Positions 5,665 to 24,045 of a stretch of DNA of 64,000 nt are shown here, in pieces. The position numbers and the translations under genes were made by a program. The notes under the pieces are model-generated. The model saw nothing but the letters and a program-made list of their open reading frames with translations. It ran no database searches and was not told where the DNA came from. Within the stretch, counting starts at the first letter, position 1, and the number at the start of each line of letters is the position of its first letter. The DNA comes from Escherichia coli. Lineage in GTDB: Bacteria; Pseudomonadota; Gammaproteobacteria; Enterobacterales; Enterobacteriaceae. The stretch lies in the NCBI RefSeq assembly GCF_051903065.1, contig NZ_CP178438.1, one strand, 5' to 3'.

Positions 5665-7487
5665 TCCCAGGCCTCCTGACTTTCCGTGTTGATGATTTTC
5701 AGACAGTGGTACGAATTGATGCTGGCGTAGAGAGCAAAAAAGTGCGAGAGCACTGTACCAAGAAGATAAATTTCACCTTCGCAGATAAATGGATCGGGAC
5801 GTATCCACAACGTGGTCGCCAGCCCGCGAACCGGCACGCCTTTAAACAACCTGTCAACAGGTTTGGTTTCGAGTTTTTCTATGGCATCCAGTTTCTGGCG
5901 CGACAGTCTGGCCCGCTGCGGATGGTGAGCGCCTGGCAGGTCGAAGGTCCGCAGGATCTGGATCAGTGTCTCCCTGTCCAGCAGGGAGAGGTAGTTCAGG
6001 TTCATCGCGGAAATCAGCGACCAGTGCATGTCGCCGTCCGTGACTGGCCAGAGCGGCTGCGTTGGGCGTGTGACATTATGAAATGAGGCCACCGCCGGGT
6101 TTTTGTTGACGGCCACGCAGATATCGCCGATATGCAGCCGAGCAGGGATCATACGGTTGGTACAGATTAATGACGTGGTGATCACATCATCATTAAACCG
6201 TGAGCTGTCCGGAATGCTGCCGTCCGCATGGACAAAGGCGATACTATGTTCAAGCCCGCGGTGAAACAGGGATGTTTTAGTCCGGTGATGCCAGTAAACG
6301 ACTTCCCGCTGGCGGCTGTACTCCATCTGGTGCTGGAAGCTTTCAAATTCGGGCCAGACACGCGCCTGGCTGCCAGGGTTGGATTCAGTACCTGAAACTT
6401 TGACTTTGCTGGTGACTGTGCTTATCTGAAAAATGTCATAAGCGTCGGGATGCCGGTGGCTGGCGCGCAGCGGGTATTCCGCTATCCGTCCATCAGGCCT
6501 GACGGGTTCCGCATAATGCGTAAACAGGTTAATGGCTGGCGTACAGTGCAGACGCAGTGAGTCCTGGCGTAGCTTGATGTCGGCAGGTAACGGGCGGTTA
6601 AAGTGCAGGCGCAGCGTAAACGCGCTGACCGGGAAATCGTCCGGTAGTGGCGCAACATCGCGCAGATGGAAAAAAAAGAAGGCTTCGGGATAGCAGAAAT
6701 ACTCCTGGAGTACCCGATAGCCGCTGTGGACATTTTTCGGCCACGGTAGCAGGGCGTCCTGGTTTTCAAATCCGGCGGCCTCCAGCCACAGATCCGGCAG
6801 CGGCAGGCGGTACTCTCCGGCAATCAGTTCCGCATCCATCAGGCATTCGCAAAACCACAGATAAAGCTGGTGTCGGGTATAATCGTCTTCATTACCCAGC
6901 CAGAACGTTATTTTGTTCAGGTCAAGCATGGCGGGGGAGACATTGTTATCTGCGGTAAAACTGATATCTATGATGCCTTCTTTCAGGCTGCTGGCGTTGC
7001 GGGTGTCGAGAATGCGCAGTGGTTGCAGCCAGATATCGCGCGCCAGCGTGAAATGACAGGCTACGGAAGAAACGATTTTATCATGATTGTCAGACAGCAC
7101 CTTCTGAGCAGCCAGGGCGGACTTTTCTGAGCGGCTTCTGATCAGTTCATTACGACAGACCTGAACAGGGACTTTTAACTGATCGGTTTTGGGTTCATAG
7201 GCAATAACCGTCATGGCCGGAACCGGGCGTAAATAGTTTGCCCACAGCATACGGATTAGCCCATGAGTGAATTCGGGGAATTCGTCCTCAAGTTTCTGGC
7301 GCAGGCTACCGGACATAAAGGCAAAGGCTTCCATCAGTCGCTCCACGTCCGGATCACCCTCTTTCTCGGCCAGAAAGTGGGCCAGATGTGGTTTTTCCTG
7401 CGCCAGCAGTTTGCCAAGCTGGCGAAGATAATCCAGCTCTTCGCGGTAGTAACGTTCTTCAAAAGCCACAGAGATCACTCCACACAA
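5628..7487 (-). CDS. tssF: T6SS baseplate protein TssF
   Basis: 619-aa ORF; ...EERYYREELDYLRQLGKLLAQEKPHLAHFL is the TssF N-terminal signature. The track start is a TTG, so the exact start (7487 vs a few codons inside) is uncertain. Confidence 0.85.
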   Translation of the reverse strand: MCGVISVAFEERYYREELDYLRQLGKLLAQEKPHLAHFLAEKEGDPDVERLMEAFAFMSGSLRQKLEDEFPEFTHGLIRMLWANYLRPVPAMTVIAYEPKTDQLKVPVQVCRNELIRSRSEKSALAAQKVLSDNHDKIVSSVACHFTLARDIWLQPLRILDTRNASSLKEGIIDISFTADNNVSPAMLDLNKITFWLGNEDDYTRHQLYLWFCECLMDAELIAGEYRLPLPDLWLEAAGFENQDALLPWPKNVHSGYRVLQEYFCYPEAFFFFHLRDVAPLPDDFPVSAFTLRLHFNRPLPADIKLRQDSLRLHCTPAINLFTHYAEPVRPDGRIAEYPLRASHRHPDAYDIFQISTVTSKVKVSGTESNPGSQARVWPEFESFQHQMEYSRQREVVYWHHRTKTSLFHRGLEHSIAFVHADGSIPDSSRFNDDVITTSLICTNRMIPARLHIGDICVAVNKNPAVASFHNVTRPTQPLWPVTDGDMHWSLISAMNLNYLSLLDRETLIQILRTFDLPGAHHPQRARLSRQKLDAIEKLETKPVDRLFKGVPVRGLATTLWIRPDPFICEGEIYLLGTVLSHFFALYASINSYHCLKIINTESQEAWEWQEKMGQHALI

Positions 7488-7900
7488 TAGCGTTGATGGT
7501 TGTCCAGCAAAATGTCAAATTCAAACACTCCCCTGGTTTCGCTGACATCGACCGTAGCCACAATATGAAAACGCAGTTCCACAGGGGCGTATTCATCCGG
7601 TGCAGCAGCCGTAACAACAACATCGGTAATACGAGGTTCGTAATGTAAAATGCACTGGCTAATGGACTTACGGATTTCTCGTCTGAAATCGCTGGAGGCC
7701 AGCGATTCATCATTTAAATCAGTAATCCCCAGCTCTGGTGAGCCATAACAACTGCCGGAGCGGGTATTCAGGACCTGTTGCAGGTTACGTCTGATGGAAC
7801 GTATCAGTGCTTCTTTTGGATTCTGGTATGAAGGCGGGTTGGCCGCCTCACGGATACGTTCAAAAAGACTGCTGGTTGGCCCTGAATCCCGTCTTTGCAT
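7475..7900 (-). CDS. tssE: T6SS baseplate protein TssE (gp25-like)
   Basis: 141-aa ORF between tssC and tssF; size and position fit gp25-like TssE. Confidence 0.85.
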   Translation of the reverse strand: MQRRDSGPTSSLFERIREAANPPSYQNPKEALIRSIRRNLQQVLNTRSGSCYGSPELGITDLNDESLASSDFRREIRKSISQCILHYEPRITDVVVTAAAPDEYAPVELRFHIVATVDVSETRGVFEFDILLDNHQRYCVE

Positions 7901-7904
7901 CTGA

Positions 7905-9389
7905 TTATTCCTTATCCAGTCGTCCGACCAGACTCAGGTCGAAACTGGCACCCATGTATTTAAAATGCGGTCTGACAGAAATCGCGACCTGGTACCAGCC
8001 TGGCTCACCATCCACATCAAGTACCTCGATCTTCGCCTGACGTAATGGCCGGTGGCTGCGGACTTCGGCAGGCGGATTCTCCTGGTCGGCCACATACTGG
8101 CGAATCCAGGTGTTCAGCTCGCGCTCCAGGTCACTGCGTTCTTTCCATGAGCCAAGCTGTTCGCGCTGAATTACCTTGATGTAATGCGCTAACCTACTGA
8201 TAAAAAATAAGTATGGCAGCTGGGTGCCGAGTTTATAGTTGGTCTCCGCAGCCTTGCCTTCGGGGGTTTTGGGGAATGTTTTGGGTTTCTGCACCGAGTT
8301 GGCCGAGAAAAAGCACGCATTATCAGACCCTTTACGCATGGTCAGTGTGATAAAGCCTTCTTCCGCCAGCTCATACTCTCTCCGGTCAGTTACCAACACT
8401 TCAGTCGGAATTTTTGCCTGCATTTGCCCCATGGATTCATACAGATGCACCGGGAGGTCTTTGACTGCGCCGCCGCTGGAAGGGCCAATGATATTGGGAC
8501 ACCAGCGATATTTAGCAAAACTTTCAGCCAGGTTCGCAGCTAGTAAAAACGAGGTGTTCCCCCACAAATAAGACTCGTGACTCTGGCTGACGTCTTCATG
8601 GTAACGGAAGGTCCTGGCTGGGTTCTCATCCGGCGAGTAAGGGTGACGCAGCAGGAACCGGGGGGCGGTCAGCCCCAGGTAGCGTGAATCTTCTGATTCA
8701 CGCAAGGCACGCCAGCGGGAATAGGCCGGGCCTTCAAAGATGGCTCCTGGTTCTTTAATCCCCGGTAACTCTGTCCATGAGTCCAGACCGAAAAATTCGG
8801 ATGATACTGATGAGAGGAACGGGCTGTGCGCCATCGCACTGACCTGGCTGATATATTTCAGCAACTTCATATCCGGCGTGGTGTTCTTAAAGGCAAAGTT
8901 GCCGATTACCGCCGCCACTGGCTCACCGCCAAATTGTCCGTAACCGCTTGAATATACATGTTTGTAATATGCAGACTGCGTGATTTCAGGTGCAAATTCG
9001 AAATCATCCAGCAGTTCTTCCTGAGTGACATTCAGGAAATGGACCTTGATGTTTTCCCGTGTATCCGCGCGTTCAACCAGCAGCTTCAGCGAGCGCAGCA
9101 GGGATTCCAGTTCCTGAAACTCCGGGGCATGAATAATGGCATCCATCTGCCTGCTGGTTCGGGCATCAATATCAGCAATCATGGCGTCAACGGCCAGGAT
9201 ATTGATAGGTTCAGCGCTACTGTCACCCTGTAACATGGCGGCAATAAAGGCGCTCACGCCCTGGCGGGTGATATCGTAGCTTTCTGATTTAGGCTGGACG
9301 CGTGTTTGCGCCATGATTTCATCAAGCAGAGATGGGGGCGCGGCGGTTTGCGACGCGCTGACGGGAGCAATATCTTCCTTTACTGACAT
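7905..9389 (-). CDS. tssC: T6SS contractile sheath large subunit TssC
   Basis: 494 aa, VipB/TssC-like; immediately downstream of tssB. Confidence 0.9.
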   Translation of the reverse strand: MSVKEDIAPVSASQTAAPPSLLDEIMAQTRVQPKSESYDITRQGVSAFIAAMLQGDSSAEPINILAVDAMIADIDARTSRQMDAIIHAPEFQELESLLRSLKLLVERADTRENIKVHFLNVTQEELLDDFEFAPEITQSAYYKHVYSSGYGQFGGEPVAAVIGNFAFKNTTPDMKLLKYISQVSAMAHSPFLSSVSSEFFGLDSWTELPGIKEPGAIFEGPAYSRWRALRESEDSRYLGLTAPRFLLRHPYSPDENPARTFRYHEDVSQSHESYLWGNTSFLLAANLAESFAKYRWCPNIIGPSSGGAVKDLPVHLYESMGQMQAKIPTEVLVTDRREYELAEEGFITLTMRKGSDNACFFSANSVQKPKTFPKTPEGKAAETNYKLGTQLPYLFFISRLAHYIKVIQREQLGSWKERSDLERELNTWIRQYVADQENPPAEVRSHRPLRQAKIEVLDVDGEPGWYQVAISVRPHFKYMGASFDLSLVGRLDKE

Positions 9390-9411
9390 ACTGAAAATCC
9401 TTCTGTGAAAA

Positions 9412-9915
9412 TTATTTCTGAACGGCGATACCCAGTTCTTGGATCAGCTGCTCGCGGCTGTCTTCGTTTTCCAGTAGCGCCTGAAGTTGTGCGCGGAAGG
9501 CCGGAATATTGCCTAGTGGAGACTTAAGTGCGACCAGAGCTTCACGCAATTCGAGAAGACGTTTTATTTCTGGTACCTGGCTGGCAATATGGTCCGGAGA
9601 AAGGTCATCCATAGATTTGACTTTCAGGTTGACGTACATTTGCTCATTGGGAGCGTCACTGAGTTCAGCCGGAACAACAAACTCCCGTTCAATGTCAGCT
9701 TCTGAAATGACTGCGTTGAGGTTATAGCGGTTGATAGCAATGGCAGTTCGCTCGTCCAACGGCGTGTTATCTGGTTTCCCTTTCAGATTGCCGGTGATCA
9801 ATAAATTCAGCGGCAATTCGATATCAGCAGCCACCCCATCAACTTTTGGTGTATACCGAACGCTGATTCTTTCTTTCGGCGCGACACTGCCGCCATTGTT
9901 GTTCATTTTGCTCAT
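9412..9915 (-). CDS. tssB: T6SS contractile sheath small subunit TssB
   Basis: 167 aa, VipA/TssB-like (RISVRYTPKVDGVAADIELPLNLLITGNL...). Confidence 0.9.
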   Translation of the reverse strand: MSKMNNNGGSVAPKERISVRYTPKVDGVAADIELPLNLLITGNLKGKPDNTPLDERTAIAINRYNLNAVISEADIEREFVVPAELSDAPNEQMYVNLKVKSMDDLSPDHIASQVPEIKRLLELREALVALKSPLGNIPAFRAQLQALLENEDSREQLIQELGIAVQK

Positions 9916-10493
9916 AAAAATGTTCCCGTTCAGGCCATGAGCACAGCATTTTCGTACTGCATAAAAATACCGAAGATACCGTTTCAGTGGCAGTTAGATA
10001 ATGTAACCTTCCTTCTGTTGTGATCAGTATTCTACTCATGAAATAAAATATTAAAAGAACTATTTATATTTTAGAAAGAGATGTATTCTTCCTTGCTAAT
10101 ATATTATAGTGAAATAAATTTTGGTATTTATAGACTTGGTGAATATGATTTTACGGTCAATAAAATACCATAATATATTGATTTATATGCATTTATTAAA
10201 TTGATTAATAAGTTTTATGTATGGTTTTATCAATTAATTAATTGCTGGCAATACATCATAAGGAATTCCTTTAAGGAATGTCTTAATTGCGTGCTGGAAC
10301 GATGGCGGAGTAAGTGTCGTAATAATTTGTTTTTGACGCGGCTGTGGATTTTTATGGGGGGGGAAGATACGTTATGGATAATTGTGCTGTTGAAGTTGAT
10401 ATATTTTTAGCTTATGTGACCGTGTTCTGAAATTGACTAAAAATATATTTAAACACCATAAAAGAGTTTTTCAGTAGGTGCTAATTACGTGTG

Positions 10494-10502
10494 CCTGTAA
10501 CT
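10494..10502. repeat. 9-bp target-site duplication CCTGTAACT (left copy) of the IS903 insertion
   Basis: Identical 9-mer directly abuts both IS ends (10494-10502 and 11560-11568). Confidence 0.85.
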
Positions 10503-11559
10503 GGCTTTGTTGAATAAATCGAACTTTTGCTGAGTTGAAGGATCAGATCACGTATCTTCCCGACAACGCAGACCGTTCCGTGGCAAAGCAAAAGTTCAAA
10601 ATCACCAACTGGCCCACCTACAATAAAGCCCTCATCAACCGTGGCTCCATAACTTTCTGGCTGGATGATGAAGCTATTCAGGCCTGGTATGAGTCAGCAA
10701 CACCTTCTTCACGAGGCAGACCTCAGCGCTATTCTGACCTTGCCATCACGACTGTGCTGGTCATTAAACGCGTATTCAGGCTGACCCTGCGCGCTGCGCA
10801 GGGCTTTATTGATTCCATTTTTTCTCTGATGAACGTTCCGCTACGCTGCCCGGATTACAGCTGTGTCAGCAGGCGGGCAAAGTCGGTTAATGTCAGTTTC
10901 AAAACGCCCACCCGGGGTGAAATCGCACACCTGGTAATTGATTCCACCGGGCTGAAGGTCTTCGGTGAAGGCGAGTGGAAAGTCAAAAAGCATGGCCAGG
11001 AACGCCGCCGTATCTGGCGTAAGCTGCATCTCGCCGTTGACAGTAAAACACATGAAATCATCTGCGCTGACCTGTCGCTGAACAACGTTACGGACTCAGA
11101 GGCCTTCCCCGGGTTAATCCGGCAAACCCACCGGAAAATCAGGTCAGCCGCCGCCGATGGCGCTTACGATACCCGGCTATGTCACGATGAACTGCGGCGT
11201 AAGAAAATCAGCGCGCTTATCCCTCCCCGAAAAGGTGCGGGTTACTGGCCCGGTGAATATGCAGACCGTAACCGTGCAGTGGCTAATCAGCGAATGACCG
11301 GGAGTAATGCGCGGTGGAAATGGACAACAGATTACAACCGTCGCTCGATAGCGGAAACGGCGATGTACCGGGTAAAACAGCTGTTCGGGGGTTCACTGAC
11401 ACTGCGTGACTACGATGGTCAGGTTGCAGAGGCTATGGCCCTGGTACGAGCGCTGAACAAAATGACGAAAGCAGGTATGCCTGAAAGCGTGCGTATTGCC
11501 TGAAAACACAACCCGCTACGGGGGAGACTTACCCGAAATCTGATTTATTCAACAAAGCC
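10503..11559 (+). mobile_element. IS903-type insertion sequence (IS5 family), about 1057 bp
   Basis: Terminal inverted repeats GGCTTTGTTGAATAAATC at 10503-10520 and its reverse complement at 11542-11559; internal transposase ORF; flanked by a 9-bp direct repeat. Confidence 0.9.
10535..11503 (+). CDS. IS903-group transposase
   Basis: 322-aa ORF (TTG start in the track; true start may be slightly internal); IS5/IS903-type transposase sequence. Confidence 0.85.
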   Translation: MKDQITYLPDNADRSVAKQKFKITNWPTYNKALINRGSITFWLDDEAIQAWYESATPSSRGRPQRYSDLAITTVLVIKRVFRLTLRAAQGFIDSIFSLMNVPLRCPDYSCVSRRAKSVNVSFKTPTRGEIAHLVIDSTGLKVFGEGEWKVKKHGQERRRIWRKLHLAVDSKTHEIICADLSLNNVTDSEAFPGLIRQTHRKIRSAAADGAYDTRLCHDELRRKKISALIPPRKGAGYWPGEYADRNRAVANQRMTGSNARWKWTTDYNRRSIAETAMYRVKQLFGGSLTLRDYDGQVAEAMALVRALNKMTKAGMPESVRIA

Positions 11560-11568
11560 CCTGTAACT
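11560..11568. repeat. 9-bp target-site duplication CCTGTAACT (right copy)
   Basis: See left copy. Confidence 0.85.
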
Positions 11569-11684
11569 CGAATAAAGAAAAGGGTGTGGTTCCTGATGTG
11601 AGCCGCATCACACTCTAACCCGTCGGGGATTAACGACGGGTTGTTCGTAAAACAGCAGTTGATAATTTCACAAGGAGTTCATAA

Positions 11685-12203
11685 ATTCCAACCCCATGTT
11701 ACATTTCAATTACAGGTCAGACCCAGGGGAACATCACTGCCGGTGCTTTCACCGCAGATTCTGTCGGCAATATCTACGTGCAGGGACACGAAGATGAAAT
11801 GCTGGTGCAGGAGTTTCTGCATAACGTTACTGTTCCAACCGATCCACAGTCTGGTCAACCTTCCGGGCAGCGCGCGCACAAACCGTTCATTTTCACCGTG
11901 GCGCTGAACAAAGCCGTTCCGCTGCTGTACAACGCGCTGGCCTCCGGTGAAATGCTGCCGAAAGTGGAGCTGCACTGGTGGCGTACTTCAGTTGAAGGCA
12001 AGCAGGAGCACTACTTCACCACACGTCTTACTGACGCGACGATTGTGGACATGAACCTGCACATGCCGCACTGCCAGGACCCTGCACAGCGTGAGTTTAC
12101 GCAATTGCTCGCAGTATCACTGGCATACCGTAAGGTTGAGTGGGAGCACATCAAATCCGGTACTTCTGGTGCCGATGACTGGCGTGCACCGCTGGAAGCA
12201 TAA
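11685..12203 (+). CDS. hcp: T6SS tube protein Hcp, apparent non-ATG (ATT) start
   Basis: Frame-0 translation IPTPCYISITGQTQGNITAGAFTADSVGNIYVQGHEDEML... follows a TAA stop at 11682-11684; AGGAG at 11673-11677 is 7 nt upstream of ATT 11685. The track called only the GTG at 11778. Confidence 0.75.
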   Translation: MPTPCYISITGQTQGNITAGAFTADSVGNIYVQGHEDEMLVQEFLHNVTVPTDPQSGQPSGQRAHKPFIFTVALNKAVPLLYNALASGEMLPKVELHWWRTSVEGKQEHYFTTRLTDATIVDMNLHMPHCQDPAQREFTQLLAVSLAYRKVEWEHIKSGTSGADDWRAPLEA

Positions 12204-16947: not shown

Positions 16948-17718
16948 ATGACGATGATAACAGTATCGCCACGCGCTACCGATCAAGACAAATATATTAT
17001 CTGGCTGAAGCAGGCTGAATCATTCTGTTCTGCCGCTGGTTTGGATTACATAGATGTGCTTGTTGACCAGGCTGGAACCGACCAACCTTTGCAAAATGAG
17101 ATACTTCATCTGTGGCCAGCCATTCACTGGTATGCCCTGTTTGAAGGAACGCCTGAAGCTGAGACGATGGAGTATTCCCCTGTAGTGTTACGCCTGTACT
17201 TTGCGCTCAGTAGCCATCGCAAATTTCTGGCACAACTGATGGCGTCATTTGCTGATACGCCGCGTCTTACTTTGTTGATATCCCCTCTTACATTCGACCT
17301 GCTGGGGCGGCATCTTCAGGTATTGTCACAGGTTCAGTGGGAAGAACAGACCGGATTGCTGCGTTACTATGATAATCGGGTGTTCCCTTTACTGTTCACA
17401 CATGTTTTGACTAACGAGCAGCAGGCGACATTTACTGATATTGCGTTGTTCTGGAGCTGGTTAGACCGTGATGGTGAGATTAACTGGAAATCAGGAAGTT
17501 TTTCACCAGAACGCAGGCTTACTGACAACCCGGAGATGAATCGGGTGGATGATGTACAGGTGGGATTGATGGGCTGTATCTGCGACGCTGAAGTCCTGAT
17601 GAAGGAGAAAGCAGTCAGTGAACTCAGTCAGGAAAGCTATTTTGCCCACTGTCTTGATATTGCTTTCAGAGCCAATGACGCGAAATATTTCGGAGCTTTG
17701 CGGGACTTCGAAGGATAA
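16948..17718 (+). CDS. Putative T6SS effector adaptor (DUF4123-like), low confidence on family
   Basis: 256-aa ORF between the vgrG remnant and the immunity/effector pair; position and size fit adaptor/chaperone genes. Start may be the third codon (16954). Confidence 0.45.
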   Translation: MTMITVSPRATDQDKYIIWLKQAESFCSAAGLDYIDVLVDQAGTDQPLQNEILHLWPAIHWYALFEGTPEAETMEYSPVVLRLYFALSSHRKFLAQLMASFADTPRLTLLISPLTFDLLGRHLQVLSQVQWEEQTGLLRYYDNRVFPLLFTHVLTNEQQATFTDIALFWSWLDRDGEINWKSGSFSPERRLTDNPEMNRVDDVQVGLMGCICDAEVLMKEKAVSELSQESYFAHCLDIAFRANDAKYFGALRDFEG

Positions 17719-18061
17719 TATTGTGGTGATGTACGGGGAGATTTATCTGTTTAAAAGTCCGTAGCTGTTAATATCAAGAGATAATCGTGAAATAAACGGA
17801 AAATCAAGCTCGACATGTAATGGTAGTATCCATCATGTTGCATTTGTGTTCGATCGTAATGTCAGTTCACTTGGCTGCAATATATTTTGCGTAATATCAT
17901 CAATGCTCTGTCGATATTCCAATGTGTGACAATCGAAAGATATGCATTTTATTTGCTTCTTTGTCAAAACTTTATTGTCGTAGAAACAATACCCATCAAT
18001 TAAAATCTCTCAAAGTAAAAGAACCAGCAACATGTCCAGCAAAATAAGGAAAAGTATCAGT

Positions 18062-18586
18062 ATGAGAGCGATTTTCAAATGTTATTCTCTAATGATTTTA
18101 TTTGCAGTATCAGGCTGTTCAATGGCAAAAAATAGCGGTGATTACACTGCTGTGGATATTAATGGGATAAATCATACGGATAAGGATATAAATTATATAC
18201 ACATCAATGGTTACGGCGGACCAAATATTGGTCCATTCGGAGACGGTGGAGGATATTGTTGCGTTATGCTGCCAGATAAGTGGCATTCTGGATTAAAAGC
18301 CCAGGTTGAATGGGAAATTACCCCAAATACAGTACCTCCGCCACCACTCTATAAGGATTGGGATAAATATCAGGCCTGGGAGAAAAAACTAAAAGAAAGT
18401 TACATTCAACATACCGCAATTGTTGATATCCCGGAATACGATGCTGAGCTTTGTGGCCTGACCGTTCATTTTCTAACGTGTAATCAGATTAAAGTGACAA
18501 CCGTCTGCCAGAAGTATGGCACACCGAATTATCCCATCAAAGAACCCCGCGAGATGAAGGAACCAGCAACATGTCCAGCGAAATAA
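18062..18586 (+). CDS. Lipoprotein, Tli-like candidate immunity for the adjacent lipase
   Basis: MRAIFKCYSLMILFAVSGC lipoprotein signal; AAGGA ~12 nt upstream. The track start at 18032 lies inside a duplicated 3'-end repeat and is rejected. Confidence 0.6.
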   Translation: MRAIFKCYSLMILFAVSGCSMAKNSGDYTAVDINGINHTDKDINYIHINGYGGPNIGPFGDGGGYCCVMLPDKWHSGLKAQVEWEITPNTVPPPPLYKDWDKYQAWEKKLKESYIQHTAIVDIPEYDAELCGLTVHFLTCNQIKVTTVCQKYGTPNYPIKEPREMKEPATCPAK

Positions 18587-18602
18587 GTGGTCTGGCTTTT
18601 CC

Positions 18603-20663
18603 GTGTTATGCCCCCCAGCGTTTCCTGAAAATGGGCGATTAATATTATCTGAAGCGCAGGTAAACGCGAACTACCTAAAACAAATCAATAAAACAGAAGA
18701 GCACAAAACCAACTGTAGTAAACAGGCTGGATTTAGAATTGGCTTTACGTGTAATCAAAGTCTGCATATTAGTCTGTTTTTTGATGGTACAAATAATAAT
18801 GAATATAATGACACTCCTGGACACCCAATCAATATTGCCAAACTGTTTCATACGACCTATCAGAACGCAGAAGAACAGGGATATTTTAACTACTATATAC
18901 CGGGTGTAGGCACACCATTTCCCAAGATAGGTGAAATGGATTACAGCAACAGCGGGCTGGAGTTCGCTACTGGTGGTGAAGATCGAATTAATTGGGCATT
19001 ATTACGCCTCGTGGATGCCCTGAGCTATTCCATTGACCCTTCCCATAAGCGACTGGATGATAATGTGGCAAAAGAGCACATTCCTCTTATGCGCGCTCCC
19101 TGGCCTATGACTGGTGAAGTGAATCGTCGCAATGTGATTAACCCCTACCTGGAAAAATTACAGGGACTGTTAGAGCAAGCCAGTCCGCGCCTGCTAAACG
19201 TAAAGCTGTTTATCTACGGATTTTCCCGTGGCGCAGCGGAAGCACGAACTTTTGTTAACTGGTTGACTCAGTTAGCTTGCCCGCAGGAGCAACAGGTGAT
19301 GCTGGCCGGGTTAGCTGTCAGTATTGAGTTTTTGGGGCTGCTGGATACCGTAGCTTCTGTGGGGGCGGCGCATGTTTTACCGGGCGCTGCCGGTCATATG
19401 GGATGGGCCGATAGTACTCAGCAACTCCCTGATGAGAGGCAGTTTCCCGGCCTGATTAAATGCTGCCGCCACTTCGTTGCCGCGCATGAGCAGCGGCTGT
19501 GCTTTCCGCTGGATTCAATCCGTCGTCCAGACGGAAATTATCCTTTAAATGCAGAGGAAATTATCTATCCGGGGATGCACTCTGATGTCGGTGGTGGCTA
19601 TCCCGTTCGCGATCAGGGGAAGTCCTGTGGTGACTCAGGCGAAATTCTTTCTCAGATAGCACTGCATGATATGTATCTTGCTGCATTTGATTCAGGAGCA
19701 CCACTTGCTGTTTATTCTAAATTTGTTACTCCATTAATAAAAGGTGTGTCGCCTCTGCGAATTATGAGTCCTTCTAGCGTAAAGGAATTTACGATTGCTA
19801 ATTCATTAACAAAACGCTTCAACATCTGGCGACAAACGCTGCTGAACACCACCTTGCAGGGTACAGAAGAAATGATTGATACGAGGGAAGGTTATCACTC
19901 CTATCAACTTGCCCAGGTTCTTGAAAGCGCAATTAGCGATCAGATCGGCTGGATCACCGCCTGGCGTATCGGTCGCTATGCGAATAACAGCCTTCTTGTG
20001 CAACCTTTTTATATTAAGGCGCCACAGCTGGATAAAGATGGACTTGATAAAGAGGCTAAAGCGCGTAAAGAACAAATGGAAAATATTGAAAAAGAGCGGG
20101 CGAACAAGCAGAAAGGGAATGGCACACTTGATGAAAGTAATCAGGGCATTCCTATCCTTGACCCAACCAATGCTCAGTATCAGTTGCGAGAGGCAGCCCG
20201 AGAATTTCAGAGCGATTATAAAGGATGGACGCGCGATATTAACGGCAGCGTCATGGAGAAAGCCATTCAGATTCTTGTGGATGTCATTCCTAAATATCCG
20301 GTGTATCTGATTAATGGCGATGATGAAGCAAAAGAATATCAGCAAATTAAGGCTATGGGAGACGGACTCTATCCACAATTTTTTATTGATTCACTGGGAA
20401 CGGGAACGCGTACTCAGCCCTGCGCTGAATTACTGGCTCTCTATGATGACCAGGTTCACGACTCCCGCGCCTGGTTTATGCAAAGTTCGCTGGGTGGACG
20501 CGAACCCTGGGGCGGTTATTTTCGCTACCGCATGATTTACTTCGGTGATGAGGCTAATAAAGAGCTGAAGCTAATCTCTGCAGATGGCAAAGTTGTTGGT
20601 GATCAGCCCACATCCAACCGGGTCATTTATTGGATGGAATCGAAAACGGTGAGCCGAGGTTAA
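18603..20663 (+). CDS. tle1: T6SS phospholipase effector, Tle1-like (DUF2235, GxSxG)
   Basis: 686 aa; LFFDGTNNN N-terminal core motif and GFSRGA (GxSxG) at 19217-19234. Start codon uncertain: GTG 18603, no in-frame ATG upstream. Confidence 0.7.
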   Translation: MLCPPAFPENGRLILSEAQVNANYLKQINKTEEHKTNCSKQAGFRIGFTCNQSLHISLFFDGTNNNEYNDTPGHPINIAKLFHTTYQNAEEQGYFNYYIPGVGTPFPKIGEMDYSNSGLEFATGGEDRINWALLRLVDALSYSIDPSHKRLDDNVAKEHIPLMRAPWPMTGEVNRRNVINPYLEKLQGLLEQASPRLLNVKLFIYGFSRGAAEARTFVNWLTQLACPQEQQVMLAGLAVSIEFLGLLDTVASVGAAHVLPGAAGHMGWADSTQQLPDERQFPGLIKCCRHFVAAHEQRLCFPLDSIRRPDGNYPLNAEEIIYPGMHSDVGGGYPVRDQGKSCGDSGEILSQIALHDMYLAAFDSGAPLAVYSKFVTPLIKGVSPLRIMSPSSVKEFTIANSLTKRFNIWRQTLLNTTLQGTEEMIDTREGYHSYQLAQVLESAISDQIGWITAWRIGRYANNSLLVQPFYIKAPQLDKDGLDKEAKARKEQMENIEKERANKQKGNGTLDESNQGIPILDPTNAQYQLREAAREFQSDYKGWTRDINGSVMEKAIQILVDVIPKYPVYLINGDDEAKEYQQIKAMGDGLYPQFFIDSLGTGTRTQPCAELLALYDDQVHDSRAWFMQSSLGGREPWGGYFRYRMIYFGDEANKELKLISADGKVVGDQPTSNRVIYWMESKTVSRG

Positions 20664-20734
20664 GTTCATAAGATTGAGGGGGGGGTGACCGGGAAAATGT
20701 AGACATGTAGTGCCTAATCACCCCAGTTCAAACC

Positions 20735-20762
20735 CATCCGCATCCCGCCATGCCGGAAACTT
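20735..20762. repeat. 28-bp copy of the yafV 3' end (direct repeat with 23283-23310)
   Basis: CATCCGCATCCCGCCATGCCGGAAACTT is identical at both sites. Confidence 0.8.
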
Positions 20763-20920
20763 CACACTGTACTCCCAGGGAAAAATCACGTAATGCTGCT
20801 TTTTTTGTACTAAATAATTCGCATTTTATGTTCAATAATTGAGGTGTTCCTTATTACCTAAAGCTGTTTTTCATTGCTTATACATGATCAAATACTCATT
20901 GCATAATTAAGGGGGGCAAA

Positions 20921-21684
20921 ATGGAACTTAAAAAATTGATGGAACATATTTCTATTATCCCCGATTACAGGCAAGCCTGGAAAGTGGAACATAAATTGCC
21001 AGATATTCTATCTGTTAACTATTTGCGCCGTTATTTCTGGTGCATAATGCTGGGAAGATATAGAGGATTTGGGGAAACACATCCCGATTTTTTGAAGTGA
21101 TATGGTGATTTTGAAAATGGTATTCCTGTTCACGATATCATTGCCAGAGTTGTATCCTGTATCAGTCCTGAAAAATTTCATGAGTGCTTTATTAACTGGA
21201 TGCGTGACTGTCATTCTTCAGATGATAAAGACGTCATTACAATTGATGGAAAAACGCTCCGGCACTCTTATGATAAAAGTCGTCACAAGGGAGCAATTTA
21301 TGTCATTAAAATCCGTCTTCATATTGTTTGCATGTCTCTGATGAATTTATTGATTTTACGTTTGAATGGAAAGGGCTGAAGAAATTATGCATGGCAGCCT
21401 CATTTCGCTCAATAATAGCAGAACAAAAGAAAAATCCCGAAATGACGGTCAGATATTATAGCATTTCTGCTGATTTAACCGCAGAGAAGTTCGCCACAGC
21501 GAACCGAAATCACTGGCAAGTGGAGAATAAATTGCACTGGCATCTGGACGTGGTAATGAATAAAGACGACTTCAAAATAAGAAGAGGAAATGCAGCAGAA
21601 TTATTTTCAGGGATACCGAAGATCGCTATTAATATTTTAACGAAAGATAAGATAATCAAGGCAGGGGCAAGATGTAAGATGTGA
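20921..21684 (+). pseudogene. ISAs1-family (H-repeat-associated) transposase pseudogene with internal deletion and stops
   Basis: [26 protein letters not shown]... N-terminus, in-frame stop, and C-terminal part (...[11 protein letters not shown]...[11 protein letters not shown]...) in three broken frames. Confidence 0.75.
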
Positions 21685-21912
21685 AAAGCAGCTGCGGACA
21701 GAGACTACCTCGCGTCAGTCCTTGCGGGGGCGGGCTTTCGTAATCTTGTTCTGCAAGGGATGATAAAAAGTGCAACTTTATTCCACGCAGCTATTTAGAC
21801 AGCGTACAGTAAACAAACGAAAGTTGTTATTTCAATGGTCAGGGCAAGAGCATGAAGTGTTTACTACACACTATGCTCTTGTCCTGGAGTCAGGTCTTGT
21901 TTGGAGGGATAA

Positions 21913-22416
21913 ATGGTAGATATTGTCGAGGCCGATAAAACGGATATTTATTTCATTCAGGAGAGTGTTTATGGTAAAATCGGGCTGCCAGCTTTTGGTA
22001 ATACAATAGGACCATCTGCACAGCAGGTTGTTAAAAAGGTATTCGCTGTCGTTAAAGAACGAGATAAGACACATGCAAAACAGAGATTATTGTTGGAATA
22101 TAATGGTAACAAACTCTGGATGAATGCTATTGATGGCAGTGAAGCTATCCTACCAATAGAATTTTCTAAGCGATACGAACTTTCATTATTCAATACTACT
22201 AATTTTGGAGAAGATCCTTTTCCTGATGTTAATTTATATAATAATATGAAATCAAGTTTTTTTGTAAGGTTTGGTGGAACATCCCATCCCGAGGCTTGGG
22301 CTATTTATAATGCAAGTACGAAAGAGGTTAAATATATAGAAACTGCAAGAGAAATTGATAAAATATTCAGTGATTTTAACTTGAGTGGTACATTGCCAAT
22401 TCACATTGGTCAATGA
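21913..22416 (+). CDS. Hypothetical protein (AT-rich, unknown function)
   Basis: 167-aa ORF with GGAGGG RBS; no family recognised. Confidence 0.5.
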   Translation: MVDIVEADKTDIYFIQESVYGKIGLPAFGNTIGPSAQQVVKKVFAVVKERDKTHAKQRLLLEYNGNKLWMNAIDGSEAILPIEFSKRYELSLFNTTNFGEDPFPDVNLYNNMKSSFFVRFGGTSHPEAWAIYNASTKEVKYIETAREIDKIFSDFNLSGTLPIHIGQ

Positions 22417-22482
22417 TTTTTTAAATTGTGTGATTAAATAATTGAACATTAGTGATGATTTATAGCATCATTATTCTATAAC

Positions 22483-22995
22483 ATGAATAAACGGATTGAA
22501 TGTGTTATGTTAAAAATGAGTTTATACGTAATAATATTGTTATTTTCCTTTCAGATTAGTGCAGCCATTACTAGCAAGGAAAGTGAGGTTGTTTCACCAT
22601 TATTAATGGATGTTAATTCTTCACTAACAATGCAAAATATTTCTGAATTATCCACATCATCGGAACCATCGCAACAGGGGGTATTTCCTGTAATATGTAC
22701 TCGACTTCATCCTGGCTCCGTAATGAAACGCCAGTTATTAACCGGCTGGGGGCCTGTTTTTATAATTGGTGATGATCCTTTTTCTCTGCGCTGGATGAGT
22801 GAACATCTGGAGATCCTTAAATCGCTAAATGCCCTTGGTTTGGTTGTTAATGTTGAATCAGTAGAACGAATGGAGGTATTACAGCAGCGGGCTGATGGGT
22901 TATTGTTATTGCCAGTTATCTGCGATAATTTCGTGCAAACTCTGCAATTAAATGCTTATCCGGTATTAATCACAGAGATGGAAATATCACAATGA
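22483..22995 (+). CDS. Hypothetical secreted protein (signal peptide)
   Basis: 170-aa ORF; N-terminal hydrophobic signal MSLYVIILLFSFQISAAIT; AT-rich. Confidence 0.5.
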   Translation: MNKRIECVMLKMSLYVIILLFSFQISAAITSKESEVVSPLLMDVNSSLTMQNISELSTSSEPSQQGVFPVICTRLHPGSVMKRQLLTGWGPVFIIGDDPFSLRWMSEHLEILKSLNALGLVVNVESVERMEVLQQRADGLLLLPVICDNFVQTLQLNAYPVLITEMEISQ

Positions 22996-23017
22996 TTAAT
23001 AACATAATTACTGCAAA

Positions 23018-23222
23018 TAATATCGTAATTTTGAAAATGGTAATCCTGTTCACGGCACCATAATTAGAGTTATGTCTTGTATCCGTTCAGTATAATTTCA
23101 CGAATGCTTTATTAACTGGATGCGTGACTGCCATTCATCAAATGACAAAGACGTCATCGCGATTGATGGAAAAGCACTTCCACACTCCTATGATAAAAGT
23201 GGTCGCAGGAGAGCGGGCTTTC
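23018..23222 (+). pseudogene. Second ISAs1-family transposase fragment (about 200 bp, direct repeat of 21095-21300)
   Basis: YGDFENG...[24 protein letters not shown]... segment is duplicated at both locations. Confidence 0.7.
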
Positions 23223-23268
23223 GTAGTCTTCCCCGACTCTCCCCAGCCCTAAACACAACACCCACTCA

Positions 23269-24045
23269 CTACAACCTAAACTCATCCGCATCCCGCCATG
23301 CCGGAAACTTATCGCGATATTCCCTTAACACCGCCATCGACAGCTCCGCATCAATGCGCGTTGCCTGATGCGCGTCGGCAGTAGCGATAATCTCGCCCTG
23401 TGGATTAATCACCCGGCTGTCACCGCGATAATGGCAGCCGTTGCCATCGCTGCCGACGCGATTGCATCCCGCCACATACGCCTGATTCTCAATCGCGCGG
23501 GCCGTCAGCAATGCCTGCCAGTGCAGAGAGCGCGGAGCAGGCCAGTTGGCAACGTAGATGGCGAGGTCATAATCGTTGAGATTGCGCGACCACACCGGAA
23601 AACGTAAGTCGTAGCACACCAACGGCAAAATACGCCAGCCGCGCCATTCCACAATCACTCGCGCATTGCCCGCTTTATAATGCAGATGCTCATCTGCCAT
23701 GCGGAACAGATGACGCTTATCATAAAAATGTACCGTGCCGCCCGGCTCAACCAGCAAAAAGCGGTTAACCGAACCAGACTCCGTTTGTAATGCAACACTG
23801 CCTGCAATCAGCGCATTGCACTGCTGCGCTTTGGCTGTCATCCAGTTCACTACGTCATCTTGTGCTAGCGACGAAGCAGCCGCTTCCATGGCAAAGCCGC
23901 TGGTAAACATCTCCGGTAGAACGATCACATCGCGCCCGGTAATACCTTCCAGTTGACGATCAAAATGACGCAGGTTGGCAGGGCCATCCATCCACACCAG
24001 TGGTTGCTGCAAAAGCGTAATCTTCAAACCAGGCACGGTGTACAA
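23269..24045 (-). CDS. yafV: Carbon-nitrogen hydrolase family protein YafV
   Basis: 258-aa ORF, nitrilase-superfamily sequence; true start may be 3 codons internal. Confidence 0.9.

Follow-up and report, generated by a model that had tools for sequence, protein, structure and literature searches.

How does the edge of a variable island become a mosaic of dead insertion sequences (ISs), gene fragments, and repeats, and what do the intact genes caught within it do? We addressed these questions in a 64-kb stretch of an Escherichia coli chromosome (hereafter the window), where a type VI secretion system island (T6SS-1) is followed by a junction region and then by yafV, ivy, and fadE. The junction contains two remnants of ISAs1-family elements, on either side of a pair of genes that we call orf167 and orf170, and a 28-bp direct repeat. 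A preliminary description had placed it, correctly, at the boundary between the T6SS island and yafV, and had interpreted it as cargo captured by an ISAs1 element, inserted at the 3' end of yafV, and left to decay. The explanation that we favour, and judge probable if only just, is that the variable aspV T6SS-1 island and the conserved yafV-ivy-fadE backbone meet in a layered junction, rather than in a single insertion, and that this junction harbours a putative effector-immunity pair. The structural history, as read from sequence comparisons, comprises old ISAs1 copies, the exchange of cassettes at an IS breakpoint, a foreign scrap of yafV, and occasional deletion across a repeat, and we hold this part with high confidence.

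The first gene, orf167 (21913..22416, plus strand), encodes a 167-aa protein that is predicted to be cytoplasmic and belongs to a T6SS-linked family, which makes it a candidate effector of Hcp size. The second, orf170 (22483..22995, plus strand, with the RefSeq start at 22507), encodes a predicted exported protein of the PFL_4695/TIGR03765/DUF2859 family and is the candidate immunity partner. Both had been noticed before as AT-rich open reading frames (ORFs), and rightly so: the two frames are intact, and the GC content is 29-39% across the module region versus 55-59% in yafV. In strain ECNB21-M121, which is 100% identical to the window over 20600-23400, RefSeq annotates this stretch as an ISAs1 pseudogene, a hypothetical protein, an "integrating conjugative element protein", an ISAs1 fragment, and yafV. 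We surveyed 5426 complete E. coli genomes and found the full 2.8-kb module stretch in 541 of them; the ORFs are therefore not backbone genes. The ORF pair, or part of it, is present in 758 genomes, always at one chromosomal place. Some 10-14% of complete E. coli genomes carry the pair, including NC101, uropathogenic E. coli (UPEC) 536, and avian pathogenic E. coli (APEC) isolates.

Divergent alleles of the pair reveal how it has been maintained. A rare allele, found at the same locus in 12 E. coli genomes, has 68% (orf167) and 76% (orf170) amino acid identity to that of the window; it lies directly 3' of a PAAR-toxin cassette, lacks an upstream ISAs1, and has one of near full length on its downstream side. 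A metagenomic contig (L095) carries the pair at 59% and 50% amino acid identity, 3' of genes for Hcp, VgrG, DUF4123, an effector, and PAAR, and no transposase gene was called within 8 kb on either side of it. When divergent alleles are compared, both genes have a ratio of nonsynonymous to synonymous substitution rates (dN/dS) of 0.19-0.36, and dS reaches 1.5. orf167 and orf170 are maintained by purifying selection, unlike the adjacent dead IS genes, and the decay previously proposed for the whole insert applies to both ISAs1 copies but not to the ORFs. The pair co-diverges in three lineages, each time beside T6SS effector cassettes, and terminates vgrG cassettes in the window, in the rare-allele strain PapM-32-1 (L103), and in L095. 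It forms one layer of the junction, a bicistronic module kept under selection next to effector cassettes.

The rare allele has neighbours of its own. Upstream of it (L103 5274-9627; L091 4931-7576) are genes encoding a PAAR-like toxin, a WD40/BNR-repeat protein, a 411-aa hypothetical protein, and a 137-aa thioredoxin-domain protein with a CXXC motif, which possibly represent an effector with accessory or immunity genes. Further upstream, L091 but not PapM-32-1 has an Mn-catalase gene similar to KatN, a T6SS effector of enterohaemorrhagic E. coli (EHEC). A role in anti-phage defence was considered and rejected, because PADLOC gave no match for orf167, for orf170, or for these upstream genes. 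We found no literature on the orf167 or orf170 proteins.

Profile searches assigned orf170 to DUF2859 but gave no family for orf167, which has no match in Pfam, NCBIfam, or PADLOC. The orf167 protein has no signal peptide and no transmembrane segment, and its AlphaFold2 model is mostly beta-strand. This fold had no match among solved structures, and the best hit of the family profile against PDB sequences reached only an E value of 0.11. An exhaustive HMMER search for relatives gave 29 representatives, mostly of ~190 aa, from Serratia, Morganella, Pantoea, Rahnella, and others, all of them annotated as hypothetical; E17, G99, D101, P102, L108, and Y109 are invariant in the family alignment. 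Some of these relatives are encoded among T6SS genes: one directly after tssB-tssC in a core T6SS cluster that also encodes small exported proteins and a Tae-like amidase (L106), one directly after an orphan hcp (L098), and one 3.5 kb from Tlde1 and hcp (L104). In L106 and L098 alike, a small envelope protein comes next. In L099, L100, L104, L106, L107, and L109, long-form loci of Serratia, Morganella, Pantoea, the core-cluster contig, and two metagenome contigs, the next gene encodes a protein of 135-149 aa with four transmembrane segments, and in L110 a similar protein is encoded upstream rather than downstream. The L106 stretch (7001-12062) looks like an effector-immunity hotspot, in which the orf167-family gene after tssC is followed by genes for the four-transmembrane protein, several proteins with signal peptides, and a 126-aa protein whose "GHCAKYV" motif is Tae-like.

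The organisation of these loci resembles that of small Hcp-dependent T6SS effector-immunity pairs of Enterobacterales such as two systems of Serratia, Ssp6-Sip6 and Ssp4-Sip4, in which a small leaderless protein is likewise accompanied by a small envelope partner (PMC6889166, PMC12669606). The Ssp6-like and Ssp4-like families were defined by loci that are orphan, beside hcp, or in a tssC-hcp hotspot, and that vary between strains, a pattern that the orf167 family has in common with them (PMC6889166, PMC12669606). The proteins themselves differ. Ssp4 exceeds 300 aa and is mostly helical (PMC12669606), whereas orf167 has 167 aa and is mostly beta-strand, and we dropped membership of the Ssp4 family on these grounds of size and fold. 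Ssp6-like genes measure ~640-690 bp and their immunity protein has 67 aa (PMC6889166), whereas genes of the orf167 family measure ~500-590 bp and have partners of 135-170 aa.

The product of orf170 matches PFL_4695/TIGR03765 with 120.7 bits (cutoff 59.75) over model positions 1-105 of 105, and PF11072 at 2.2e-28. Its N-terminus, for which a signal peptide had already been suggested, is a hydrophobic helix ending in ISA|A, typical of a predicted Sec signal peptide. A disordered linker and a putative thioredoxin-like domain without CXXC follow. The orf167 family is genetically linked to the T6SS, and its E. coli member is a small leaderless protein co-inherited with a partner that is predicted to be located in the envelope. 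Because of the gene neighbourhood, the protein sizes, the predicted localisations, and the selection on both genes, evidence of the kind by which the Ssp6-like and Ssp4-like families were extended (PMC6889166, PMC12669606), we propose that orf167 may be a small antibacterial T6SS effector, carried by Hcp and acting on the cell envelope, and that the exported orf170 may be its immunity protein. With such a pair, the T6SS toxins of extraintestinal E. coli would include a new fold, and DUF2859, a family without reported function, would gain a first testable role. With more hesitation, we regard it as possible, short of probable, that orf167 and its relatives of ~160-200 aa in Enterobacterales, Burkholderia, and other T6SS-bearing Proteobacteria constitute an undescribed family of Hcp-size antibacterial effectors, beta-rich, without a solved relative, and with an invariant Glu and Gly-x-Asp-Pro, whose E. 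coli branch would have swapped the usual four-transmembrane immunity protein for a periplasmic, thioredoxin-like DUF2859 protein without CXXC from the clusters of conjugative type IV secretion systems (T4SSs). If this recruitment is true, a part of one secretion system has been reused as immunity in another.

Several observations weigh against an effector-immunity function. orf167 has no known effector marker (MIX, PAAR, Rhs, or DUF4123-dependent domains) and no recognisable toxin domain. Several members of its family are far from any T6SS gene: the relatives in L099, L100, L107, and L109 stand at orphan loci that are free of T6SS genes for ~7 kb around, and in Salmonella Infantis a short homologue (36% over 94 aa; L111 6959-7631, the equivalents of STM4156/STM4155) lies between thiH and rpoC, beside a convergent small membrane protein and distant from T6SS genes. 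The type of partner also varies, being a four-transmembrane protein in the long form and a DUF2859 protein here, which is unusual for cognate immunity. Finally, the usual setting of DUF2859 is a T4SS. In Salmonella integrative and conjugative elements (ICEs), its gene is found between those of a lytic transglycosylase and the coupling protein, and the putative CXXC-less thioredoxin-like fold of orf170 recalls periplasmic T4SS assembly factors, e.g., TraF of the F plasmid. Given this setting and this fold, orf170 could be a relic of conjugation and not an immunity protein.

The main rival explanation develops this last point. It holds that orf170, and perhaps orf167, were left by a degraded ICE in the aspV-yafV interval and now have no role, or none tied to the T6SS. 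We think it unlikely. The orf170 protein is a bona fide member of PFL_4695/TIGR03765. Its closest relatives are periplasmic and encoded in the T4SS clusters of conjugative elements; with the copy from Salmonella ICEs, its C-terminal domain has 55% identity, and its layout of signal peptide and C-terminal domain is that of the DUF2859 proteins of PFGI-1/SPI-7-type ICEs (Salmonella copies). The resemblance of its putative fold to CXXC-less thioredoxin-like periplasmic T4SS factors fits this origin too. orf167 has no homologue among the ICE genes beside DUF2859, while its own family is repeatedly linked to the T6SS. The surroundings of the pair are rich in mobile-element debris, and in the metagenomic relative the gene that follows it (L095 8958-9449) is a fragment of the type IV CRISPR-Cas gene csf1 (Cas8-like; E value 8e-60). 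Type IV CRISPR is carried mostly on plasmids and conjugative elements, and the fragment hints at debris of one or the other. Yet neither the window nor the related E. coli loci have a T4SS, relaxase, or integrase gene near orf170; unlike the copies in ICEs, orf170 stands alone by orf167 and T6SS cassettes, with no lytic transglycosylase, coupling protein, or T4SS gene nearby. A relic would also be hard to reconcile with two genes that remained intact under purifying selection across dS >1 while the neighbouring IS genes died, and that co-diverged with each other in three lineages. Both views would hold if orf167 recruited as its partner a periplasmic protein derived from conjugation.

Some further observations concern orf167 and its immediate upstream region. 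The N-terminal "IQES...GPSAQQ" of the protein is similar to the motifs of SLT-type lytic transglycosylases, and in ICEs the DUF2859 gene comes after one for an SLT. We considered orf167 as a divergent enzyme of this type, and dropped the idea because the AlphaFold2 model is mostly beta-strand, not lysozyme-like, and BLAST found no similarity to the ICE SLT gene. No orf167 was found on true plasmids or phages, the only candidates being a chromosome-sized "plasmid" record and partial homologues on Salmonella chromosomes; the Infantis record is filed as a phage, but its contig looks chromosomal. Upstream of orf167, 26 nt 5' of its start, a near-perfect 21-nt inverted repeat (21840..21886, plus strand) is predicted to fold into a hairpin with a 5-nt loop (dG -29.9 kcal/mol, z -4.46). 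The ends of its arms, CAGGGCAAGAG... and ...CTCTTGTCCTG, are similar to ISAs1 terminal repeats. It is found in 546 genomes at one copy per genome, which rules out a repeated miniature inverted-repeat transposable element (MITE), and conservation of its left arm does not extend to the rare allele. The hairpin could be the footprint of an IS end, or an operator or attenuator for orf167. An Rfam search of the region gave no RNA family match at E <= 1.

The two ISAs1 copies that bracket the pair have distinct histories. ISAs1 #1 (20776..21753, plus strand) is of the H-repeat type and aligns from end to end with yhhI, the ISAs1-family (ISEc1-like) H-repeat in RhsB of strain K-12, including both terminal inverted repeats (CAGGGAAAAATCA... 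from 20776 and ...TAATCTTGTTCTG to 21753). This alignment bears out the internal deletion proposed previously, of ~311 bp, and adds several frameshifts and stops; RefSeq labels the copy "frameshifted; internal stop". Likeness to other ISAs1 copies begins at ~20768-20776. It lacks a target-site duplication, for CTGTACTCC and CAAGGGATGA, which flank it, are unrelated. ISAs1 #2 (23015..23235, plus strand) is a mid-gene fragment fused to the right end of the IS. Its positions 23015-23214 directly repeat 21095-21294 at 81% identity and are joined straight to the right end (GCGGGCTTTCGTAGTCTT..., extending to ~23235), which is the only end kept. The direct repetition had been described as a duplication within the insert; the repetition is real, but with 81% identity ISAs1 #2 is no recent duplicate of #1, and the value is consistent with two separate copies. 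Both can be aligned to yhhI and are annotated in RefSeq as ISAs1 family transposase pseudogenes. The intact transposase and target-site duplication of a recent, mobile copy are found in neither.

ISAs1 #2 occupies the insertion site of the K-12 pseudogene yafF, with which it has in common the right end and the junction into the sequence downstream of yafV (GCGGGCTTTCGTAGT...CCCCGACTCTCCCC...TAAACAC...). The type strain of E. albertii has an ISAs1 at this same site, with an intact left repeat and a different internal deletion. As the site is common to K-12 yafF and E. albertii, the insertion is old and predates the present arrangement. The first layer of the junction is an old ISAs1 ~35 bp downstream of yafV, of which 23015-23235 is what remains here. 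The window differs from K-12 and E. albertii in the internal deletions of its ISAs1 copies, which have no target-site duplication, and from K-12 in having, between the two copies, a gene pair that is missing from K-12, where yafT-ykfM-yafU takes its position. In the E. albertii type strain (L010 5320-8677), an Rhs-family toxin gene of at least 969 aa lies just beyond the left end of the yafV-proximal ISAs1, in agreement with the classical association of H-repeats and Rhs. In the rare allele of L091, an 87-aa ORF (10555-10818) separates yafV from the right end of the near-full-length ISAs1. The window, K-12, and E. albertii do not have this ORF, so what stands between the IS end and yafV varies with the lineage.

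The 28-bp repeat had been read as the boundary of an insertion. Its sequence, CATCCGCATCCCGCCATGCCGGAAACTT, does occur in exactly two copies in the window (20735-20762 and 23283-23310), where none is expected (100 shuffles), and a weaker likeness extends around it over 64 nt (20713-20776 versus 23261-23324; 77% identity). The right copy is part of yafV (23269..24036, minus strand), the backbone gene for 2-oxoglutaramate amidase (NF007757, 543.6 bits, and annotation). The left copy lies between ISAs1 #1 and the gene of a Tle1-like T6SS phospholipase effector (18603..20663, plus strand; ORF and RefSeq name in ECNB21-M121), the final gene of this variant of the aspV T6SS-1 island. We collected yafV from 80 species, translated the 3' ends, and compared them. 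The minus strand of 20718..20775 reads in the yafV frame as a YafV C-terminus unlike this strain's own: a relic, yafV', of the last ~19 codons and the stop of a foreign allele. With yafV of Pseudocitrobacter faecalis it agrees at 55/59 nt (93%) of the 3' end, down to an identical terminus (GFELG and stop), and P. faecalis alone among the species checked has this C-terminus. The match is delimited by the stop codon on one side and by the inverted repeat of ISAs1 #1 on the other.

The 28-nt core encodes KFPAW(R/Q)DAD, which is near-invariant in yafV across the genera of Enterobacteriaceae; the 28-mer is identical in P. faecalis and differs by one base in K-12 and NC101. Because this core is conserved in the coding sequence of yafV, the exact identity of the two copies reflects conservation of a motif and not duplication at insertion. 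The repeat is not a target-site duplication. What occurs twice is simply the best-conserved segment of the yafV 3' end, and it illustrates that a scrap of a foreign core gene can imitate such a duplication. As side observations on this 3' end, the residues of YafV C-terminal to DAD differ widely among species, and yafV of the window stops at a TAG (23269-23271) where K-12 has TGG, so that the protein ends in EFRL instead of EFRLW.

The distribution of these features across the surveyed genomes separates the foreign fragment from the module. The Tle1 3' end followed by the yafV fragment is found in only 72 of the 5426 genomes, and ~470 of the ~540 module-bearing genomes lack the left 28-bp copy. 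Genomes of the majority type, such as MS20657 and NY1601, have an ISAs1 #1 and a module identical to those of the window; on the left they carry a VgrG-DUF2169-PAAR-toxin cassette, and the sequence turns unrelated exactly at the left repeat of ISAs1 #1, with no yafV'. This switch identifies the IS end as the breakpoint between differing effector cassettes, and the absence of yafV' from the majority type makes it part of the Tle1 cassette and not of the module. A further layer of the junction is the second ISAs1 (20776-21753), now dead, whose left end is the breakpoint of cassettes that differ by strain. The last, seen in the Tle1-cassette variant only, is the 58-bp Pseudocitrobacter-like yafV tail set against the IS end; yafV' probably came with the Tle1 cassette, by an exchange through recombination that ended in the IS. 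Two results count against this route. A donor arrangement, with Tle1 next to a yafV that ends in GFELG, is absent in all 80 species checked, none of which has Tle1 beside yafV at all, and P. faecalis itself was rejected as the donor of the Tle1 cassette, with no T6SS gene within 4 kb of its yafV.

The aspV-yafV interval behaves in this respect like PAI-aspV-type islands and Salmonella SPI-6 at aspV (PMC2907695), where different islands occupy a single interval: depending on the strain, it holds a T6SS with Tle1, a T6SS with a PAAR toxin, an iron-uptake island, or the yafT-yafU set of K-12. The window differs from such hotspot islands in that its right breakpoint is the IS end, not yafV, and in that a foreign scrap of yafV is preserved. 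As genome anatomy the region is ordinary; it shows island swaps between aspV and yafV that use an IS end as breakpoint, and what is of most use in it is the gene pair. In D10 a different aspV island cuts in at ~22461, and LP5-1 has lost the entire T6SS via IS1 while keeping the yafV scrap and the module.

A strain in which yafV directly abuts the island, such as the preliminary description had proposed for comparison, does exist, but it is not an empty site. In ChlosBP-23-1, Tle1 is directly followed by an intact chimeric yafV with the foreign GFELG tail and its stop (L007 4391-4560). The two flanks align with NC101 at 99.5% and 98.8% identity, and the alignments overlap by 47 bp at the repeat. 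The overlap and the NC101-like flanks indicate a clean deletion of 2.5 kb across the repeat: ChlosBP-23-1 is a recombination deletion in an NC101-like ancestor, found in 1 of the 72 genomes. This precise deletion is the sole demonstrated activity of the 28-bp repeat, and it implies that 28 bp of homology are enough to delete 2.5 kb cleanly.

With these elements, the earlier interpretation can be reassessed. In its full form, a cargo-carrying or composite ISAs1 captured both ORFs, inserted in the yafV 3' end while duplicating 28 bp, and then decayed. We now consider this very improbable, although the features that inspired it are genuine: the two ISAs1 remnants that flank the ORFs are in direct orientation, the exact repeat lies outside them, and one strain has Tle1 directly beside yafV. 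That strain, however, is the deletion derivative just described. The left copy of the repeat belongs to a 59-nt foreign yafV tail whose coding likeness goes beyond the core, and it is missing from most module-bearing genomes. Nor do the copies bound an insertion by lying flush with the ends of an element, since the tail of the left copy abuts only the left inverted repeat of ISAs1 #1, and the right copy is ~47 bp away from the end of ISAs1 #2. Moreover, ISAs1 #1 has no target-site duplication, and #2 is only 81% identical to it and has a site common to K-12 and E. albertii. Capture by ISAs1 is further contradicted by the existence of the pair without flanking IS copies: the upstream ISAs1 is missing in the 12 rare-allele genomes, and in the metagenomic relative no transposase gene was called within 8 kb on either side. 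Site-specific integration, in which the 28-bp repeats would be the attL and attR of an element that inserts at the 3' end of yafV and restores it with an end of its own, is hardly credible: an identical core with diverged flanks, and two copies that both encode a plausible YafV C-terminus, are typical of integrators into gene 3' ends, but there is no integrase, the left copy, which an IS end truncates, matches a yafV allele that occurs naturally in another genus and is missing from most module carriers, and the "replacement" end (EFRL/EFRLW) is normal for E. coli and E. albertii and present in the element-free K-12.

Mobile elements keep accumulating in the interval, with the module interrupted in other strains by IS1A, by ISEc60, or by a group II intron (ltrA). 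On the island side, NC101 and ChlosBP-23-1 have three or four tandem DUF3304 genes 5' of Tle1, where the window has one (17700-18600). DUF3304 is the Tli1-type immunity family, and the immunity gene array differs between otherwise similar Tle1 cassettes.

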